From IMG/VR virus record IMGVR_UViG_2609460356_000006: a stretch of 8,301 nt of DNA, one strand, 5' to 3'. Source of the stretch: a virus. Taxonomy: Duplodnaviria; Heunggongvirae; Uroviricota; Caudoviricetes. Position 1 is the first letter of the stretch. The number at the start of each line of letters is the position of its first letter. The notes under the pieces were generated by a model, which saw nothing but the letters and a program-made list of their open reading frames with translations, ran no database searches and was not told the origin of the DNA. Position numbers and translations under genes: made by a program. Below, in pieces: positions 1 through 8,301 of this stretch.

Positions 1-348
1 AAATCGCGCCAGCGCTGGCTGTTTTACGCGTATGACAGGCTCCGGAAGACGGTTGTTGCGCACGTATTCGGTGAACGCACTATGGCGACGCTGGGGCGTC
101 TTATGAGCCTGCTGTCACCCTTTGACGTGGTGATATGGATGACGGATGGCTGGCCGCTGTATGAATCCCGCCTGAAGGGAAAGCTGCACGTAATCAGCAA
201 GCGATATACGCAGCGAATTGAGCGGCATAACCTGAATCTGAGGCAGCACCTGGCACGGCTGGGACGGAAGTCGCTGTCGTTCTCAAAATCGGTGGAGCTG
301 CATGACAAAGTCATCGGGCATTATCTGAACATAAAACACTATCAATAA
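1..348 (+). CDS. insB: IS1 transposase InsB, C-terminal part (5'-truncated by window edge)
   Basis: Frame 1 is open from nt 1 ([38 protein letters not shown]...HYLNIKHYQ-stop); the 82..348 ORF is the tail of this frame. Recognised as InsB from memory. Confidence 0.9.
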
Positions 349-500: not shown

Positions 501-2270
501 TTACTTTTGATTTTCTCCACTGTTATGAGATGTATCATTCCACATAGGCATCCAGTCTTCTGAGTCGTCGTGAAGCGTGACGTTTGACCTTATGCCATGT
601 TTTGTTTTGCGCTTCTGGTACTCCTTGCCATATTCAGCCATTGCGCCTGGCATATCCGTACCGAACCTCATCAGCGATACCGGCTTGCTCAGACCATTAG
701 CCCGCATATAAGCCAGATAAGCGTGATACAGATAACGGCGCGGGCTGAATGGCACGATCTCGGCATTGCCAATCAGCATTCCATCACAAACCACCGAAGC
801 CATCAGGTAGCCGCAAAAGTCCACCAGTGAATCCCCTTCACGTTTGATGGCCAGCGCTTCTTCTGATTTCTGCTGCTCATGCAAAAGCTGTTTGGCTTCG
901 TCCTGCCTGGAAAAGCGAGTGAGCAGGTGGCGAATGATTACAGCCAGCTCACCTTCAATCTTCTCGGCCAGCATAGGATCGCGTTCGTTTTCCGGTACCA
1001 CTTCGGAGAAGTTGAAAATCACCCGCCGTCTGGAAACCCCCCCGCTTCTGTCGCTGAACGACATGGCATTGTTATTGACGGCAAGCACCACCGCTGGAAT
1101 ACGGGTTGAATATGGCGCTTTGTGTTTAGGGTCAATGGCTACCTTATCCCCGCCAGTGATAGCTTTAATCCCTGCGCCGTCGCCAGCGTACCGGGTCATA
1201 TCCGGCATGATAATCAGCGAATAGCCCACTACCAGCGCCCTTTCCCTTGGGTTCTCCAGCGCCGCCATGCTCGCTGATACGGTGTTGGCCTTGCCCGCCA
1301 GCATCGTGCAGATCTCAGCCATAACACTTTTACCACTTCCGCCCGGCCCCGTTACCTCAAGAAACAGCTGCCAGTCGTACCGGTTCGCCAGCACCATAAA
1401 CAGCGCAGACAGTACGCGGTCTGCTTTTCGGTCATTATCCGCCACTGAGCGGCGGAGCCATTTCCAGAAGTTCGGCGCATGGGTTGCCAGAGTCTCTCCT
1501 TCTGCTGGTTCGCTGAATGGCAATTCGCTCGCAACGATAAGCCAGTCCTTTTTATCATGCGGTCGAAATTGGCCTAACCGGGTATCAAAAACCCCGTTGC
1601 TGAAACCAATAAGATTTCGGGCTGTATTACCCATCACTGGCAGACCCAGCTTCATTGTATCGACAGCGGATTTAATCGCGTTCTGCGAATAGGCGACTTC
1701 GGCATCAATAAAAATTTGCGCCATTTCCCGCTGTAGCTCTTTATCCGAAAGCGGAACCCACACCACGCCGTTGTAATGATGAACCGTGTCAGAATCAGCA
1801 TGGATCGCCAGATTGCCATCGTAATGAGCAAGCAGAACCTCCCCGCGCTGGCTGGCTCCCATCTGGTTAAGCGCTGGCGTAGCACTACCCCTCGTAGTCA
1901 CCATTAGGGGCTCGTCTTCCAAACGCTTCATTAATGGCGTCCAGTCCTCTTTCTCACCTTTTTCGTTGATAAACTCAGCATTGGTAACGCCAGCCTCACA
2001 CAGCTTATTTGCAATCATGCTGATTTGGTTTTGCTCGATAAGTCCGGCCTGACAGACACGAGCAAACCGACGGCCTTTATCAACAATGCGCAGGTGTGGC
2101 AATTCCGCCAGTTGGGTGTGATCCAGAACCACAGGTGGAACATCGTCTCCATGCTCGCCCTTGCCTTTCTGGTAATCCTGAGCGGCTTTCCATGCTCCCG
2201 TTCCAGCAAAGATGATGGCCTCCTCCATTTTGTCGCGCGGGAGGGTTTTCACATTAGGCGCGTTTTTCAT
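501..2270 (-). CDS. P4 alpha-like replication protein: P-loop (SF3-type) helicase of the phage/plasmid primase P4 family, probably with C-terminal iteron-binding domain
   Basis: 589-aa ORF with Walker A GPGGSGKS (aa 308-315) and Walker B-like LIIMPDM; sits at the end of a small-gene operon and directly upstream of the TGTTCACC-type iterons. Confidence 0.85.
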   Translation of the reverse strand: MKNAPNVKTLPRDKMEEAIIFAGTGAWKAAQDYQKGKGEHGDDVPPVVLDHTQLAELPHLRIVDKGRRFARVCQAGLIEQNQISMIANKLCEAGVTNAEFINEKGEKEDWTPLMKRLEDEPLMVTTRGSATPALNQMGASQRGEVLLAHYDGNLAIHADSDTVHHYNGVVWVPLSDKELQREMAQIFIDAEVAYSQNAIKSAVDTMKLGLPVMGNTARNLIGFSNGVFDTRLGQFRPHDKKDWLIVASELPFSEPAEGETLATHAPNFWKWLRRSVADNDRKADRVLSALFMVLANRYDWQLFLEVTGPGGSGKSVMAEICTMLAGKANTVSASMAALENPRERALVVGYSLIIMPDMTRYAGDGAGIKAITGGDKVAIDPKHKAPYSTRIPAVVLAVNNNAMSFSDRSGGVSRRRVIFNFSEVVPENERDPMLAEKIEGELAVIIRHLLTRFSRQDEAKQLLHEQQKSEEALAIKREGDSLVDFCGYLMASVVCDGMLIGNAEIVPFSPRRYLYHAYLAYMRANGLSKPVSLMRFGTDMPGAMAEYGKEYQKRKTKHGIRSNVTLHDDSEDWMPMWNDTSHNSGENQK

Positions 2271-2445
2271 CTTTCAGCCCCCAGCTAACGAAAGTGAACT
2301 CTTTAACGAACCTTTCCAGCGGAAAGATGCACGGAAAATCGTAACCATCACGCACAAACGTTACCCGGTTAAATGCGTTATCTTTCACCGTGACCAGTTC
2401 GCCGCGCTTATCCTTCCAGCTATCGTTGATTTCAGGATTTCGCAC
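2254..2445 (-). CDS. Small conserved phage protein (63 aa), tentatively DUF4222-like
   Basis: ORF overlaps the helicase start by 17 nt and the upstream gene by 14 nt (translational coupling); motif RVTFVRDGYDFPC resembles DUF4222-type proteins as I remember them. Confidence 0.55.
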   Translation of the reverse strand: MRNPEINDSWKDKRGELVTVKDNAFNRVTFVRDGYDFPCIFPLERFVKEFTFVSWGLKDEKRA

Positions 2446-2647
2446 TGTAAGCCTCCCGCGCCTTCACCAGCTCGCCGATAGATTTGTGCAGCAGAGACAT
2501 AATTGCTCCGACACGGCACGCTTCCTCACGGTGTTCTTCACCGTCGGGAATGCTGTCAATCCACATGCTCAGCACAGACATTGCGCACTCACTTTCTGAA
2601 AGGGCATTTTCAGCGTGCATCAGGACTTCAAAAGGAACCTGTCTCAC
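2432..2647 (-). CDS. Hypothetical small protein (71 aa) in the replication operon
   Basis: ORF tightly packed between neighbours with 4-nt ATGA-type overlap upstream; plausible acidic helical protein; no family recognised. Confidence 0.5.
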   Translation of the reverse strand: MRQVPFEVLMHAENALSESECAMSVLSMWIDSIPDGEEHREEACRVGAIMSLLHKSIGELVKAREAYSAKS

Positions 2648-2838
2648 TTTGTCTCTCCCATGTGCAGCTCGGCGATTAATGCCCGGTGAATTTCCTGATT
2701 AAAATCACACGCAATAGAAATCAGATTCAGCAGCGTTTCTGAACATTCAGCAGAGGCTTTTTCCAGGATGGTTTCGTAAAGTGATGAAGCCAGCGCTGAT
2801 TTATATTCGGCCTGCTCCAGACAGATTGGCTCACGCAT
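2644..2838 (-). CDS. Hypothetical small protein (64 aa) in the replication operon
   Basis: ORF overlapping both neighbours by a few nt; no recognisable motif. Confidence 0.5.
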
Positions 2839-3022
2839 AGCGAACCTCCTGAACTGGTAGACGGCCAGCGCATACCATCACGCAGCCAGCCGGTGATTGC
2901 TCACGGGCTTCGCGCTCAGTGTTAGCTGTGATGTGAATGACGTTGCGACCGATGGCGCTCAGTGCAAGAAAACGCCAGATGTAGGACTTCCGCCCTTGCG
3001 GGTGTGTGATATGATCTTTCAT
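2831..3022 (-). CDS. Small Ash/Icd-like protein (63 aa), first gene of the leftward operon (position analogous to P4 kil)
   Basis: Internal ATG at 3022-3020 of the long 2831..3805 ORF, preceded by GAGG 5 nt upstream; product [63 protein letters not shown] resembles the Ash/Icd-like small proteins of P4-like islands (from memory). Confidence 0.6.
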
Positions 3023-3109
3023 AGCTGCCTCGTTACTTTCGCTAACGGTGGTGGTTAGAGGCCCGGTTAGTGTTCCACCACTGCCGGGCTTTGCTTTACT
3101 AAAAGTCAT

Positions 3110-3169
3110 GCAATGTAGTACATTGTCAACTCCACTACAGACTAGACCACAGGAGTTGACAATGTCAAC
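3110..3169. promoter_or_regulatory. Divergent control region with palindromic operator-like sites
   Basis: Perfect palindromes CAATGTAgTACATTG (3110-3124) and GTTGACAaTGTCAAC (3155-3169, centred on the RHH start codon), extra half-site TTGTCAAC (3123-3130); 13-bp inverted repeat CATTGTCAACTCC (3121-3133) / GGAGTTGACAATG (3152-3164). Confidence 0.5.
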
Positions 3170-3335
3170 AAGCGAAAATAAAGAGCGCCATGTTGTGCAG
3201 CTCAGACTCGATAAAGAACTGTCAGAGCGGCTCGCTTTAGCGATGAAAGAAGACGGTGACGATAATAAGTCGGGATGGATAAAACGCCTTTTGCGCCGTG
3301 AACTTGATAAGCGCGGCATCGAGCCAAAAGGCTGA
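3162..3335 (+). CDS. Ribbon-helix-helix-type small DNA-binding protein (57 aa), candidate repressor of the divergent operon
   Basis: ATG at 3162 preceded by AGGAG (3151-3155); N-terminal beta-strand pattern [12 protein letters not shown] followed by two predicted helices. The 3048 start of the ORF track lacks an RBS. Confidence 0.65.
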
Positions 3336-3421
3336 ACAGGGTTACTCCCCGTAATGCTGTGGACTGCCCCTCTTAAAAAGGGTCTGTTTTGCGCAACTAT
3401 TAATGAGTTGTGCAGAGGCTC

Positions 3422-3445
3422 CCCTCTTAAAGAGGGTTGGTTATC
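3422..3445 (+). terminator. Possible weak hairpin terminator
   Basis: CCCTC-TTAAA-GAGGG stem-loop (3422-3436) followed by a T-rich stretch; a similar but weaker copy at 3367-3382. Confidence 0.3.
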
Positions 3446-3654
3446 TTCGCAGCTCTCTACGTTTTTCGTCGGAGCCTCTAAACCACGTTTAACGTTGTTT
3501 TGCCATGAACCCGAATACTGTTCGCCTTTGTCTCGATCTCCGTACGTTAAACGTACGCGGTTAATTTGTGCGTACGGATTTCGTCGGCTCAAGGTTTGAC
3601 CACCAGCGGCAAGCCTGGTAATCTGGCGATGTTTCTGTAAAGCGGTATTGCACT

Positions 3655-3683
3655 GGCGGCCCGGCATGGCCGCCTTTGTTTTG
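3655..3683 (+). terminator. Rho-independent terminator for a plus-strand transcript
   Basis: Stem GGCGGCC (3655-3661) / GGCCGCC (3668-3674), 6-nt loop, followed by TTTGTTTTG (3675-3683). Confidence 0.6.
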
Positions 3684-3687
3684 CCTG

Positions 3688-4380
3688 TCATACAATAGCC
3701 TCCACTTTCAGCCCGCCAGCGGTATACCCCTGAACCCGAACACCATCGACGCGATGACGCTTTTTCGTCAGAAAGCGGATGTGATCTGCGTAGACGTACT
3801 GCCATTTACCATCGAGTGCCACACGTTTAAACCACGGATGAGGCTTAGATATGGTCTGGACAACTGGCGCGGAAGCCTTGCAGGGCGTGGGTTCTGCTGT
3901 GCATACCCCCTTATCGTTACCCGTTACTCTATACAGCCAGTAACTTGCCAGCTTCCCGGTCAATTTACGGGTGCGCACGGGGATATAACCCGCCTCACGC
4001 ATCGCCTTACCAAAAGTGGCATCGTCCGGGTAATACTGGCGGCGTAGTTCCGTAGATACTGAAACGGCAAAGCTGCGTTTAGTCGGGTATTCCTGCCACT
4101 GGCCGACAAATTCAAAAGGAAGACCATTAACCCTTCCTTTGGTCTTGTCCTTGCCGCTTATCCCTACATCATGGTCTGCCTCATGCACGGACACGCCGGA
4201 ACGCAGCCACACCAGCCCGTTACCGTTGTGGCGCAACCCCAGATCGGCAAGCGTAAATTCACCGCGATTAATGGGCGACCAGTCACCGGAAATAACCTGT
4301 TTACGGTTCGCTGAAATATCGTGCTGGCTGGCTACAGGGTGAGCGAATCCCTGCCCGTGGAGGGCATTAATCTTTTTCAT
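3688..4380 (-). CDS. Conserved hypothetical protein (230 aa) downstream of alpA; possibly the inovirus Gp2 / YfjJ-like family (low confidence)
   Basis: Long ORF with SD-like AGGT about 9 nt upstream, 20 nt after the AlpA-like stop (operon). Family guess rests on synteny in P4-like islands only. Confidence 0.75.
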
Positions 4381-4400: not shown

Positions 4401-4685
4401 TTAAGCAGATTTACGGCTGTATGGGTTATTGACGTTCTCTACTGCTGGCGGATTACGAACCCACCAGAGCACATCCGAAAGAAGCCAAGCACAGCTATTG
4501 CGGCCAAAGTGACAGCGCGGAGGGAAGCGCCCCTGCTGCTCCATCTTCCAGCGGCTGGAACGGGAAAGACTGGTGATCTCGCTGCATTCATCTTCACGGA
4601 TTCGGCGATCAAACTTAAAGCCGTACTCTTCTAAAAGGGTGCGGCGCTGTTCAGGATTTGGCGGGGTAAAGGTTATATTTTGCAT
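4401..4685 (-). CDS. alpA: AlpA/Vis-family phage transcriptional regulator (MerR-like HTH), 94 aa with N-terminal extension
   Basis: SLSRSSRW...GRFPPRCHFGRNSCAWLLSDVLWWV aligns by eye with the AlpA HTH and W-x3-EVxxW motifs; GGAGG upstream of the ATG. Confidence 0.8.
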   Translation of the reverse strand: MQNITFTPPNPEQRRTLLEEYGFKFDRRIREDECSEITSLSRSSRWKMEQQGRFPPRCHFGRNSCAWLLSDVLWWVRNPPAVENVNNPYSRKSA

Positions 4686-5275: not shown

Positions 5276-5926
5276 TCATTCCGTATAATAAATCGAATTT
5301 AATGCCTTTCGAATTTTCTCATATATTGCTGATTTAGATAATCCAGTTTTAGATATACCTTCCTCATCAGCTAATTTATATAGTTCGTTTAAAATAGCCG
5401 AGATGCTTGGTTTTTTAGAGGTGCCAAACGAATGGCCTATCTTATGTGCTATAAGCTTGACCAGCATCCCCATTAATTTATCATTATATTCCTTTTCATC
5501 TTCTTTACGATGCAAGCCGCGTTTGCTGCTTTTCAATGCAATTCCGACCTGTAAAAGCTCATCCCCTCCCATAGCATAAAGATGCTCTTTTCCTTTGTTT
5601 TGATTAGCAATTATAGCCACCGCCGCAAGGCATCTGTCCTTTATGGGTTGTGGTGTAATATCTTCATCAATAAGAGGATATGCCAGAGCAAACATATAGT
5701 CTGCGGGATAGGCTGTTGAGTTTCCACCTCGAAATAATTTAGATGCTGATAACCATCTACTCAGTTGTCGATAGTATATATTGTAAGCTTCAACTTTCGC
5801 TTCAGGGATATCAGCAGTTTTAACTGTCGGATCTACCCCACACATAAGTAGTGCAAGTTGTTTAATATTTAGCTCCGGGGCTTTGGCTTCTCGCTCGAAA
5901 ATACCCAATTTTAGAAAACTAGTCAT
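5276..5926 (-). CDS. AT-rich cargo protein of unknown function (216 aa) with a C-terminal HTH-like segment, start/stop-coupled to int
   Basis: ATG (5926-5924) overlaps the integrase stop as TAATG; sampled 60-nt lines give roughly 27-45% G+C against about 65% in a sampled line of the replication module; C-terminal ISKTGLSKSAIYEKIRKAL resembles an HTH; no family recognised. Confidence 0.75.
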   Translation of the reverse strand: MTSFLKLGIFEREAKAPELNIKQLALLMCGVDPTVKTADIPEAKVEAYNIYYRQLSRWLSASKLFRGGNSTAYPADYMFALAYPLIDEDITPQPIKDRCLAAVAIIANQNKGKEHLYAMGGDELLQVGIALKSSKRGLHRKEDEKEYNDKLMGMLVKLIAHKIGHSFGTSKKPSISAILNELYKLADEEGISKTGLSKSAIYEKIRKALNSIYYTE

Positions 5927-7146
5927 TATTCAGCCTTATTCAACAAAACAATGTTAGTGAATCCACCTGATAAAATATCAAGTCTGTCATACCATTTATT
6001 CAACGCATCCAGTTTCTCAGGCAAGTACAGACTACGGTTATAAATCGCCATGACTCCCGGCATTGAGTGCCCCAGCAACTGTTCGACAACGTGTGGTGCT
6101 ATACCCATATTATTCATATGCGTTGCTAAAGTTCGTCTTAGATCGTGCAGTGTCCATGGTTCAGAATGCCCTAGCTTTTTATAAACGCCGCGGCCCCACT
6201 GACTTACCGCTTCACTGCCTTTAACCGACCCAAGCAAAAGGCCGGATCGTTTCGTTTCATCATGCAGTATTTCAATGAATTTGCGCATGGCATCCGGCAC
6301 AGGTCTTACAATCTTCTCGCCACCCTTGCTGTGCTCTTTGGGAACTGTCCAGACCCAGGCATCCATATCCCATTCACTCCACTCTGATAGCCTGGCCTCC
6401 TGCGTTCGGCACCCAAACACTATTAAGATTGTCAGTAGCCTGGTGTAGTAAGGCATGAAGCAAGTGCCAGAGGAAATGGCAGCCCATAAATCGCCAGCCT
6501 CTTTATCGTTTAATACCCGGTCTTTTTTTGCCTGTTTTTTACCGACATCTGGAATTGTTAAATCTTCAAGCGCGGTACTCACAGCATAGCGACGAACCCG
6601 GCAGAATTTCAGGGCTTGTTTGCACATCTGGAACACATAACCTGCGGCGACTGGAGTTTTCTTTTTCATCCTGTCAAAGCAGTCAAGCCAGTATCGTGTT
6701 TCACAGTCAGCGAGCGCCATTTTCCCTATATAAGGATAAATGTGTTTTCGCAGCTCCGCTTTGTGCCGTTCAACATTCGCGCGGTTCTCTTCTGCATATT
6801 CGCGTATCCAGTATTCTATAGCTTCCTTAACAGTGACCGGTTTAAGGGTTTCCTGAGTAGTCAACGCCAACTGGTGCTTTGGATCTTTACCTGAGGCCAG
6901 CCACTGGCGGCATTTATCACGCGATGAACGGGCTTCTTTGAGGCTCATATCCGGGTATCGTCCCAGAGTCAGACGATGCAGCTTCTGCCCGTCAAGTCGG
7001 TAAGTAAACACCCAGCTAATACCACCAGCTTTAGTTACCTTGGCGCTCAGCCCGGCACCATCAGCATAGAACTCAATCTTACTGGCCGGGATACCATGTA
7101 ATCCCTTTAACTTCCTGTCGCTCAGTTTGTTAAGTTCGCCAGCCAT
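5926..7146 (-). CDS. int: Tyrosine site-specific integrase, P4-like family (406 aa)
   Basis: N-terminal arm-binding-type region (LSDRKLKGL...WVFTYRLDGQKLHRLTLGRYPDMSLKEAR), catalytic motifs HDLRRT, LLGHS and downstream Tyr; N-terminus faces the host junction. Confidence 0.9.
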   Translation of the reverse strand: MAGELNKLSDRKLKGLHGIPASKIEFYADGAGLSAKVTKAGGISWVFTYRLDGQKLHRLTLGRYPDMSLKEARSSRDKCRQWLASGKDPKHQLALTTQETLKPVTVKEAIEYWIREYAEENRANVERHKAELRKHIYPYIGKMALADCETRYWLDCFDRMKKKTPVAAGYVFQMCKQALKFCRVRRYAVSTALEDLTIPDVGKKQAKKDRVLNDKEAGDLWAAISSGTCFMPYYTRLLTILIVFGCRTQEARLSEWSEWDMDAWVWTVPKEHSKGGEKIVRPVPDAMRKFIEILHDETKRSGLLLGSVKGSEAVSQWGRGVYKKLGHSEPWTLHDLRRTLATHMNNMGIAPHVVEQLLGHSMPGVMAIYNRSLYLPEKLDALNKWYDRLDILSGGFTNIVLLNKAE

Positions 7147-7316: not shown

Positions 7317-7331
7317 TACGGCATGAACTAA
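7317..7331 (+). other. fis: Displaced 3' end of host fis (codons Y-G-M-N-stop), marking the island/host junction (att core region)
   Basis: TACGGCATGAACTAA encodes YGMN-stop, matching the Fis C-terminus ...KKYGMN as I recall it; upstream codons are CAG preceded by an in-frame TGA, so similarity to fis breaks here. Confidence 0.45.
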
Positions 7332-7358
7332 TTCAGGTTAGCTAAATGCTTGATTAAA

Positions 7359-7392
7359 AAGGCGCTACTCGGCATGGGGAAGCGCCTTTTTT
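7359..7392 (+). terminator. Rho-independent terminator, probably the native fis terminator
   Basis: Stem AAGGCGCT (7359-7366) / AGCGCCTT (7381-7388), 14-nt loop, then TTTTTT (7387-7392); A-run on the 5' side makes it potentially bidirectional. Confidence 0.65.
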
Positions 7393-7416
7393 ATAGGTGT
7401 CACAAAGGGAGTGACC

Positions 7417-8301
7417 ATGAGAACAGGATGTGAACCGACCCGGTTTGGTAATGAAGCTAAGACCATTATTCACGGTGATGCCCTTGCCGAACTTAAAAAG
7501 CTACCTACTGAAAGCGTCGATCTGATCTTTGCCGACCCACCGTATAACATCGGTAAAAATTTTGATGGTCTGATCGAAGCCTGGAAAGAAGATCTGTTTA
7601 TCGACTGGCTGTTTGAAGTGATTGCAGAGTGCCACCGCGTTCTGAAAAAGCAGGGCAGCATGTACATTATGAACAGTACGGAAAACATGCCCTTTATCGA
7701 TCTCCAGTGCCGCAAGCTTTTTACCATCAAAAGTCGCATCGTCTGGTCATATGACAGTTCTGGAGTACAGGCGAAAAAACACTACGGCTCCATGTACGAA
7801 CCCATCCTGATGATGGTGAAAGACGCAAAGAACTACACATTCAACGGTGATGCTATTCTGGTAGAAGCCAAAACCGGATCGCAGCGCGCGTTGATCGATT
7901 ATCGCAAAAATCCTCCACAGCCATACAATCATCAAAAAGTACCGGGTAACGTCTGGGATTTTCCGCGCGTGCGTTATTTAATGGATGAATATGAGAACCA
8001 CCCGACGCAAAAACCGGAAGCCTTACTGAAACGCATTATTCTCGCCTCTTCCAACCCAGGCGATATCGTTCTCGACCCGTTTGCCGGTAGCTTTACTACC
8101 GGTGCCGTAGCCATCGCCAGCGGACGAAAATTCATTGGTATTGAGATCAACAGCGAGTACATCAAAATGGGGCTTCGACGGCTGGATGTCGCGTCGCATT
8201 ACTCCGCGGAAGAACTGGCGAAAGTGAAAAAAAGAAAGACGGGCAACCGGTCAAAACGATGCCGGGTTAGCGAAGTTGACCCCGATCTCATTGCAAAGTA
8301 A
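7417..8301 (+). CDS. yhdJ: DNA N6-adenine methyltransferase (beta-class, DPPY motif), host gene
   Basis: ATG at 7417 preceded by AAGGGAG (7405-7411); product MRTGCEPTRFGNEAKTIIHGDALAELKK...DLIFADPPYN, 294 aa, recognised from memory as YhdJ. The GTG at 7411 in the ORF track is probably not the start. Confidence 0.85.
   Translation: MRTGCEPTRFGNEAKTIIHGDALAELKKLPTESVDLIFADPPYNIGKNFDGLIEAWKEDLFIDWLFEVIAECHRVLKKQGSMYIMNSTENMPFIDLQCRKLFTIKSRIVWSYDSSGVQAKKHYGSMYEPILMMVKDAKNYTFNGDAILVEAKTGSQRALIDYRKNPPQPYNHQKVPGNVWDFPRVRYLMDEYENHPTQKPEALLKRIILASSNPGDIVLDPFAGSFTTGAVAIASGRKFIGIEINSEYIKMGLRRLDVASHYSAEELAKVKKRKTGNRSKRCRVSEVDPDLIAK

Follow-up and report, generated by a model that had tools for sequence, protein, structure and literature searches.

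In P4, the early operon runs from vis (orf88) through eta/kil, which contains the CI RNA and seqA, to epsilon, orf151, cnr and alpha. According to the summary in PMC10111431, which cites Forti et al. 1999, translation of eta is coupled to the alpA homologue and prevents termination, Kil is a truncated form of the eta product, and expression of Kil, as cited there, kills the cell. The related small protein Icd of P1 blocks cell division via FtsZ (PMC11897509). We have analyzed a stretch of 8,301 nucleotides (nt) from the Caudoviricetes record IMGVR_UViG_2609460356_000006 of IMG/VR; this whole stretch is called the window, and all coordinates refer to it. Judged by near-identical relatives, the element is a capsid-forming phage-inducible chromosomal island (cf-PICI) at fis-yhdJ with a P4-type early operon, of the EcCIGN02175/KpCIDSM30104 type and not P4. 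Its segment of interest carries four small open reading frames (ORFs), here named A, B, C and D, followed by a helicase gene, all on the minus strand. With a probability of roughly 60%, we take this segment to be the part nearest the promoter of an early (replication) operon of the P4 type, in which translation would be relayed towards the helicase gene by the mechanism proposed below.

The earlier note on this DNA, made from the letters alone, described four genes of 63–71 amino acids (aa) that overlap by 4–17 nt ahead of a helicase gene, and its coordinates, lengths and overlap range are all correct. ORF A (2831–3022, 63 aa) begins with ATG and has its own conserved Shine-Dalgarno sequence (SD) at 3028–3031; ORF B (2644–2838, 64 aa) also begins with ATG, ORF C (2432–2647, 71 aa) with a GTG that overlaps the stop of B as GTGA, and ORF D (2254–2445, 63 aa) with GTG. 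The helicase gene (501–2270, 589 aa) is annotated as "DNA primase family". The overlaps are 8 nt for A/B (ATGCGTGA), 4 nt for B/C (GTGA), 14 nt for C/D and 17 nt for D/helicase, and each start has its own SD (GAGG for A, AGGAGG for B, GGGAGAG for C, GGGAGG for D and GGGGG for the helicase gene). The comparison drew on 80 related loci, of which 51 are contigs from IMG/VR, 26 are genomes from GTDB and three are annotated records. Among unique relatives, the 8-nt A/B overlap is found in 29 of 33, the 4-nt B/C overlap in 35 of 36, the 14-nt C/D overlap in 12 of 16 and the 17-nt D/helicase overlap in 18 of 24; where D is absent, C overlaps the helicase gene by 17 nt in eight of nine. Ratios of nonsynonymous to synonymous change (dN/dS), calculated by the pooled pairwise Nei-Gojobori method on unique sequences (31 for A, 29 for B, 34 for C and 8 for D), are 0.39, 0.16, 0.36 and 0.21 for A, B, C and D in the annotated frames, and no in-frame stop was found in any of the four across 8–34 unique sequences per ORF. 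In alternative frames dN/dS is above 0.9 and mostly above 1, with dozens of stops, except for the expected mirror antisense frame. The broken frames, or equally frequent synonymous and nonsynonymous changes, that the note had named as grounds for doubting these genes were thus not seen (dN/dS 0.16–0.39, zero in-frame stops). All four ORFs are real genes on which purifying selection acts, and they are joined by conserved stop/start overlaps.

The link of A to P4 comes from profile searches. A matches NCBIfam NF033153 (Icd-like) at 55.5 bits (E = 4.3e-15, residues 14–57), above the cut-off of 25 bits, and the C-terminus of the P4 kil/eta ORF matches the same profile at 73.9 bits (E = 7.8e-21). 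By this shared profile, A is placed in the same Icd-like family as P4 Kil, as its homologue. By analogy with P1 Icd acting through FtsZ and P4 Kil killing cells, A probably inhibits cell division, and it is the only one of the four small proteins with a homology-based functional lead. The internal SD and ATG of A are kept in 38 of 38 leader variants.

Upstream of its start, the frame of A is open as far as 3805, and a conserved SD (GGAGG) with an ATG at 3691 defines a frame of 286 codons (2831–3691, minus strand), here called the eta-like frame. Its start overlaps the stop of a 230-aa gene downstream of alpA as ATGA, and it crosses, in antisense, a small regulator gene of the ribbon-helix-helix (RHH) type. 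The nested leader arrangement of P4 is therefore found here too, a long frame in frame with A that starts at the end of the upstream, alpA-side gene. In all of 14 divergent relatives, whose GC content varies from 0.38 to 0.51, this frame has no internal stop over 830–1370 nt, and the other five frames have 5–33 stops each. At least 150 open in-frame codons precede the A-like ATG in 29 of the 38 unique leader variants, and three further variants have a long ORF in another frame; the median open length upstream over the 38 is 234 codons, versus 4–5 codons in other frames. The start, an SD and ATG overlapping the upstream gene's stop or lying 8–10 nt past it, is found in 17 of 20 unique contexts. 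In the part outside the RHH gene, the three codon positions have 23, 19 and 25 variable columns and pN/pS is 0.80, which is not below the values of other frames; the 286-aa product has no Pfam match. The eta-like frame is kept stop-free while its amino acids drift, with no protein-level constraint outside the RHH gene. Because stops are avoided while amino acids are unconstrained, this gives indirect support for a translation that suppresses termination. We considered and rejected a simple shadow ORF: an antisense opening over the RHH gene would be unremarkable, yet about 160 codons outside it, together with insertions of up to 42 codons, are also stop-free.

The interval from the RHH stop to the start of the eta-like frame (3336–3691) consists of short reshuffled modules and carries three terminator-like hairpins on the plus strand (3422–3436, 3541–3557 and 3655–3674). 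Indels between relatives are numerous in this interval, and all are multiples of three, so that the frame is preserved. The hairpin at 3655–3674, GC-rich and followed by TTTGTTTT, was picked up by a terminator scan as a putative intrinsic terminator of the plus strand just inside the start of the eta-like frame, and it is conserved with compensatory changes (GGCGGCC/GGCCGCC versus GGCAGCT/AGCTGCC). Nothing notable was found in the leader when it was inspected for rut-like, C-rich composition.

At the other end of A, its last codons hold a GGAGG that is followed by the ATG of the next gene and then by the stop of A, which gives the 8-nt overlap (2831–2838, minus strand). Of 38 unique variants, 34 have this geometry irrespective of the gene that comes next, with at least ten unrelated N-termini, and the P4 kil/epsilon boundary has the same junction (GTGCGTAA). 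No other feature of the sequence argues as strongly for a hand-over of translation from the Kil-like ORF to downstream cargo, and the conservation of the junction would explain how cargo genes are exchanged between islands. The identities of A, B, C, D and the RHH gene vary independently from island to island, which makes the region a mosaic. This mosaic structure could also be expected if the four were independent accessory genes, each using its own SD, with overlaps that reflect genome compaction and not a regulatory relay. An SD does precede every ORF, the modules have been exchanged independently, and D is dispensable beside a 99%-identical helicase; but exact overlap lengths are kept across divergent sequences, and a junction of SD, ATG and stop that is maintained regardless of the next gene, in P4 as well, is hard to ascribe to compaction alone. 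We therefore regard independent genes as unlikely and prefer an operon with relayed translation.

The proteins encoded downstream of this junction are probably interchangeable accessory cargo, and their likeliest role is to bind proteins of the helper or the host. B is an acidic orphan protein with one invariant and one nearly invariant Cys, which matches phrog_35285, a PHROG of unknown function, at 8e-40; its family, of which one member is fused behind an Ash-family ORF, is very small (41 clusters in a set of 1.84 billion representatives), and B sits in the slot held by epsilon in P4. C matches phrog_2196, likewise of unknown function, at 3e-19, has homologues in 83 clusters of about 68–73 aa with a conserved N-terminus, and is predicted as a two-helix hairpin (predicted local distance difference test score, pLDDT, 92.8), for which a Foldseek search gave generic helical hairpins only, none of them significant (E of 0.78 or above). 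RefSeq/PGAP calls C as a 49-aa protein from an internal ATG in one record (L001, 12233–12382). Across 36 loci, homologues of C start at the 4-nt overlap with B with ATG in 28 and GTG in seven, and the first 22 residues are strongly conserved; on this comparison, the 71-aa form, not the 49-aa call, is the real one. D matches Pfam PF13973 (DUF4222) at 70.4 bits (E = 9e-20, profile positions 2–52 of 53; gathering score 27), is predicted to fold into a five-stranded SH3/Tudor/KOW-like barrel, and is optional, being present or absent beside helicases that are 99% identical. A search of the Protein Data Bank with the sequences of A, B, C and D gave nothing significant, and PADLOC models of anti-phage defence proteins gave no family at E of 0.1 or less for these four or for the RHH, 230-aa and 216-aa proteins.

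The profile searches that the earlier note had proposed for each small protein have thus assigned A and D to families, and B and C to PHROGs of unknown function only. Of the resemblances that it had offered tentatively, those to Icd (A, NF033153, 4e-15) and DUF4222 (D, 9e-20) have become firm; the Ash part has fallen away, A having no match to Pfam Phage_ASH (PF10554). Its view that this position is equivalent to the kil, eta and epsilon region of P4 stands for kil, for eta (through NF033153 and the nested long frame) and for the alpha-type helicase, and fails for the CI RNA, epsilon and Ash. That B, C and D serve to derepress a helper or to take over the host, as it suggested, is a guess.

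The 286-aa frame likewise has no match to Phage_ASH, a family that the P4 eta ORF matches at 4.5e-23. In P4, Phage_ASH covers eta residues 37–161 (L081, 8330–8704), which is the stretch encoding CI (C4, 8420–8507) and seqA (isrK, 8615–8692). The "Ash protein family" may largely model translated RNA genes, and there is a general warning here that long gene calls and Phage_ASH may partly model features that are not proteins.

The helicase is of the superfamily 3, D5 type (Pfam D5_N, DUF5906 and Pox_D5; TIGR01613) and is 51% identical to residues 327–775 of P4 alpha. It lacks the N-terminal primase domain of alpha (residues 1–326), and its own residues 1–130 (1881–2270) match phrog_2850 only, with no Pfam match. 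Relatives swap the N-terminus of the helicase, and one of them (L012) has a 784-aa alpha-like protein. The missing primase domain makes it conceivable that one or more of B, C and D assist this helicase in replication, as loaders or by recruiting RNA polymerase or a host primase. Their ORFs directly precede the helicase gene, with coupling to it, and the fold predicted for D is like that of the Tudor/KOW domains with which UvrD, PcrA, CarD and Spt5 bind RNA polymerase. We hold such a replication role to be quite unlikely and prefer to see B, C and D as cargo.

The RHH regulator gene (3162–3335, plus strand, 57 aa) is divergent from the operon and is embedded antisense in the eta-like frame. 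Its product has weak RHH_1 and Arc matches and is conserved at 34–100% in relatives. Within the overlap, the lowest pN/pS is that of the RHH gene's own frame (0.42, with no stops), and amino-acid selection there acts on the RHH gene. Every locus examined has a small regulator gene on the opposite strand inside the long frame; it is of the RHH type in the window, and other small regulator genes, one of them matching DUF3950, occupy the same place in relatives. The RHH gene is flanked on both sides by hairpins with T-tracts on its own strand. A repeat search found a perfect 14-bp inverted repeat (ACATTGTCAACTCC / GGAGTTGACAATGT) at 3120–3165 with two TTGACA motifs, and this interval is a candidate operator and divergent promoter region, the promoter being recognized by eye.

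Between the RHH gene and A, the plus strand carries a hairpin, here named H1 (3061–3089), with compensatory stem changes, which is followed by TTTGCTTT (3090–3097). In 32 of 33 variants, H1 is the more stable when folded from the plus strand (mean −18.5 versus −14.9 kcal/mol), with 50 versus 11 G-U pairs, and we read H1 and TTTGCTTT as a putative intrinsic terminator of a plus-strand RNA antisense to the operon. The start of this RNA is suggested by a putative extended −10 element, TGaTATGAT (3007–3015, plus strand), which lies inside the first codons of A. The −10-like hexamer is found at a fixed distance in 38 of 38 variants and survives amino-acid changes, as in TATGAT to TATAAT with His to Tyr. 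The candidate cis-antisense RNA would extend for about 75–80 nt (3022–3097, plus strand) and cover the start codon and SD of A together with a leader hairpin, H2 (3032–3046). The predicted 80-nt plus-strand RNA folds at −34.5 kcal/mol (z = −3.4).

Other RNA features were tried and set aside. A C4-like RNA on the operon strand was rejected; H1 is steadily more stable on the opposite strand, and by eye its loop has no conserved complement nearby. A pseudoknot pairing GTGGTGG with CCACCAC in the window was also rejected, the pairing not being conserved in relatives. The hairpin followed by UCUAACCAC has a partial likeness to a BoxA/nut-like or put-like antitermination site. No C4/CI or isrK/seqA RNA was found in the window (E up to 10) or in 13 relatives (gathering score), the same models giving 74.9 bits for C4 and 60.8 bits for isrK in P4 as a positive control. 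When the whole window and the leader were searched against Rfam with permissive filters, no family reached its threshold.

A protein from a family of toxic division inhibitors, faced with a candidate RNA that would begin at the start codon of its gene and lie over the SD, in the way of SymR on symE, may call to mind a type I toxin-antitoxin-like addiction module that stabilizes the island in the manner of SymE/SymR and does not regulate the operon. There is even a weak SymR-like match; its Rfam score is well under threshold, however, and the RNA is a candidate only. Moreover, A lies nested within an eta-like frame and opens a conserved coupling chain that leads to a replication gene; both point to operon control as in P4 and P1, and we judge an addiction module very unlikely. 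The reading that this region is only a leader, left untranslated, and that some or all of the small ORFs are spurious, which could appeal to RefSeq calls that differ between relatives (C of 49 aa in one record; A of 63, 89 or 324 aa), is hardly credible, being contradicted by dN/dS that is low in the annotated frames alone, by the lack of stops and by the constant lengths of homologues.

We propose the following mechanism for the P4-type early operon. In the uninduced state, the RHH protein would hold down a local promoter and the short cis-antisense RNA would block the ribosome-binding site of A; together the two would replace the CI RNA of P4. When a helper induces transcription from the alpA promoter, the transcripts would be translated unbroken from alpA through the 230-aa gene and the eta-like frame, as for P4 eta/kil. 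Such translation would shield the transcript from premature termination, which is Rho-dependent in the P4 model, and override the RHH and antisense controls. By termination-reinitiation, ribosomes would then be relayed via A, B, C and D until they reach the helicase gene.

Several points weigh against this reading. We infer the coupling, the termination protection and the antisense RNA from sequence alone. Translation of each gene could start from the SD of that gene without depending on coupling, and six of the 38 leader variants are without a long open frame, which is thus not indispensable. The −10-like element lies within conserved codons of A, and this confounds its conservation; a sigma-70 consensus scan of the intergenic region between the RHH gene and A gave no promoter. 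The match to SymR (Rfam RF01809; 3023–3095, plus strand) is at 22.4 bits (E = 0.09), below the gathering score of 61, and the resemblance to SymR is architectural only. Pairwise BLAST of A with P1 Icd or P4 Kil shows no relation, the link being by the family profile only, and the predicted folds of C and D give generic results.

A broader proposal, which is tentative, is that this PICI lineage has swapped the RNA immunity of P4 for an antisense-embedded repressor gene and a SymR-like cis-antisense RNA, that the eta-like frame serves as an unconstrained "ribosome conveyor", and that the junction at the Kil end is a universal plug-in site. If this is true, the conveyor frame would be kept only to carry ribosomes over the repressor gene on helper-induced transcripts, which would be a clean natural case of selection on translation and not on a protein product, and satellites would swap accessory genes via the Kil-end junction under the same control. 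Control points for induction would be the RHH repressor, the putative antisense RNA and the conveyor frame, and the junction marks B, C and D as candidate factors for interaction with helper or host. The cf-PICIs cross between enterobacterial genera, and they are studied as vehicles of gene transfer.

The neighbouring genes identify the element. The gene order is int, a 216-aa gene, alpA, the 230-aa gene, the eta-like frame including A, then B, C, D and the P4-alpha-type helicase gene; int, alpA and the helicase gene are all on the minus strand beside yhdJ, which is the layout of a PICI. The tyrosine integrase gene int is at 5926–7146 (minus strand), and the element adjoins yhdJ (7411–8301). 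The alpA gene (4401–4685, minus strand), of the PICI activator/excisionase family, matches PF05930 at 5e-10, and its product has 31% identity to P4 ORF88/Vis. The 230-aa gene (3688–4380, minus strand) is a variable module without a family match in profile searches, and a study of cf-PICIs describes it as variable and of unknown function (bioRxiv 10.1101/2025.02.11.637232). The 216-aa gene between int and alpA (5276–5926, minus strand; phrog_30524) is intact in the window. In Escherichia coli TUM9754 it is split by IS1A (L001, 15239–16484), and in two other relatives (L002 and L008) an int-alpA RNA (Rfam RF02996), which was not found in the window, occupies its position. Near the site where attachment is expected, between int and yhdJ, a hairpin resembling a terminator (7325–7392, plus strand) matches STnc40 weakly (E = 0.5).

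Relatives that are 99.8% identical over the segment, such as that in TUM9754, lie between fis and yhdJ and continue into genes for major capsid protein, prohead protease, portal, connector, HNH, TerS and TerL. In the window, a fragment of an IS1 transposase (1 to about 400; ORF 82–348, plus strand; DDE_Tnp_IS1, 5.7e-48) is found directly downstream of the helicase gene, and relatives have hypothetical genes and then the capsid module at this position. This copy of the island may be interrupted or truncated, the window ending just past the IS1 fragment. The segment is rare, at least 80% of it being present in 7 of 5426 complete E. coli genomes, and it occurs also in Klebsiella, Citrobacter, Enterobacter and other genera. 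A tblastn search of phage records with A gave a sole match, to a cf-PICI deposited as a phage. This 16.5-kb record (LR881103, "Escherichia phage vB_KppS-Ant"), which came from an induced prophage, is a cf-PICI with int, alpA, an A-B-C cassette, pri and a capsid module, and its eta-like frame is annotated as a 324-aa protein. From int to the helicase, its protein identities to the window are those of the island of Klebsiella pneumoniae ATCC 13883. We take the latter island to be probably KpCIDSM30104, ATCC 13883 and DSM 30104 being the same strain.

Comparison with known systems begins with those that share only the logic of control. In plasmid R1 (CopA/tap/repA), a short antisense RNA lies over a leader ORF that is coupled to a replication gene, and in the type I module SymR/SymE the promoter of the antisense RNA lies just inside the coding sequence of its target; the likeness of the present locus to both is an analogy of logic and involves no membership in their sequence families. 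The immI region of P1 (c4 RNA - icd - ant) is closer in that the leader is a small ORF of the Icd family, the end of which overlaps the following gene's start. The RNA control that we propose here at the ribosome-binding site of the Icd-like ORF has a known counterpart at icd in P1, where it was reportedly established by Riedel, Heinrich and Schuster. Unlike P1, the present locus has no C4 RNA and no Ant-like protein downstream, and the proposed RNA would be cis-antisense, not an RNA processed from the same strand.

As in the cf-PICIs EcCIEDL933, EcCIGN02175 and KpCIDSM30104, int, alpA and pri have one orientation and the site is fis-yhdJ; unlike in described cf-PICIs, an IS1 fragment follows the helicase gene in the window, whereas the packaging module is seen in near-identical relatives. 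The accessible cf-PICI literature gave us no account of the long frame, the RHH gene or the small genes that lie from alpA to pri, nor did we find, in the accessible literature, any prior description of the antisense repressor arrangement, the unconstrained open frame or the universal junction. When B, C and D were compared with P4 epsilon, orf151 and cnr by BLASTP and phmmer in a database of six sequences, no match had an E lower than about 0.01–0.07. Differences from P4 are that the long frame holds an antisense RHH gene bracketed by putative plus-strand terminators and has no Phage_ASH match, that the helicase is without a primase domain, and that an extra gene of 230 aa lies between alpA and the long frame. 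As in P4, an AlpA/Vis homologue is followed by a long frame coupled to the upstream gene, whose Icd-like C-terminus would also be made as a short nested product, then by an 8-nt junction of SD, start and stop to the next small gene, a chain of small genes and, as the last gene, an alpha-type helicase. The four genes are thus new members of a known operon type, and the antisense repressor, the unconstrained open frame and the universal junction are what is new versus the P4 design.

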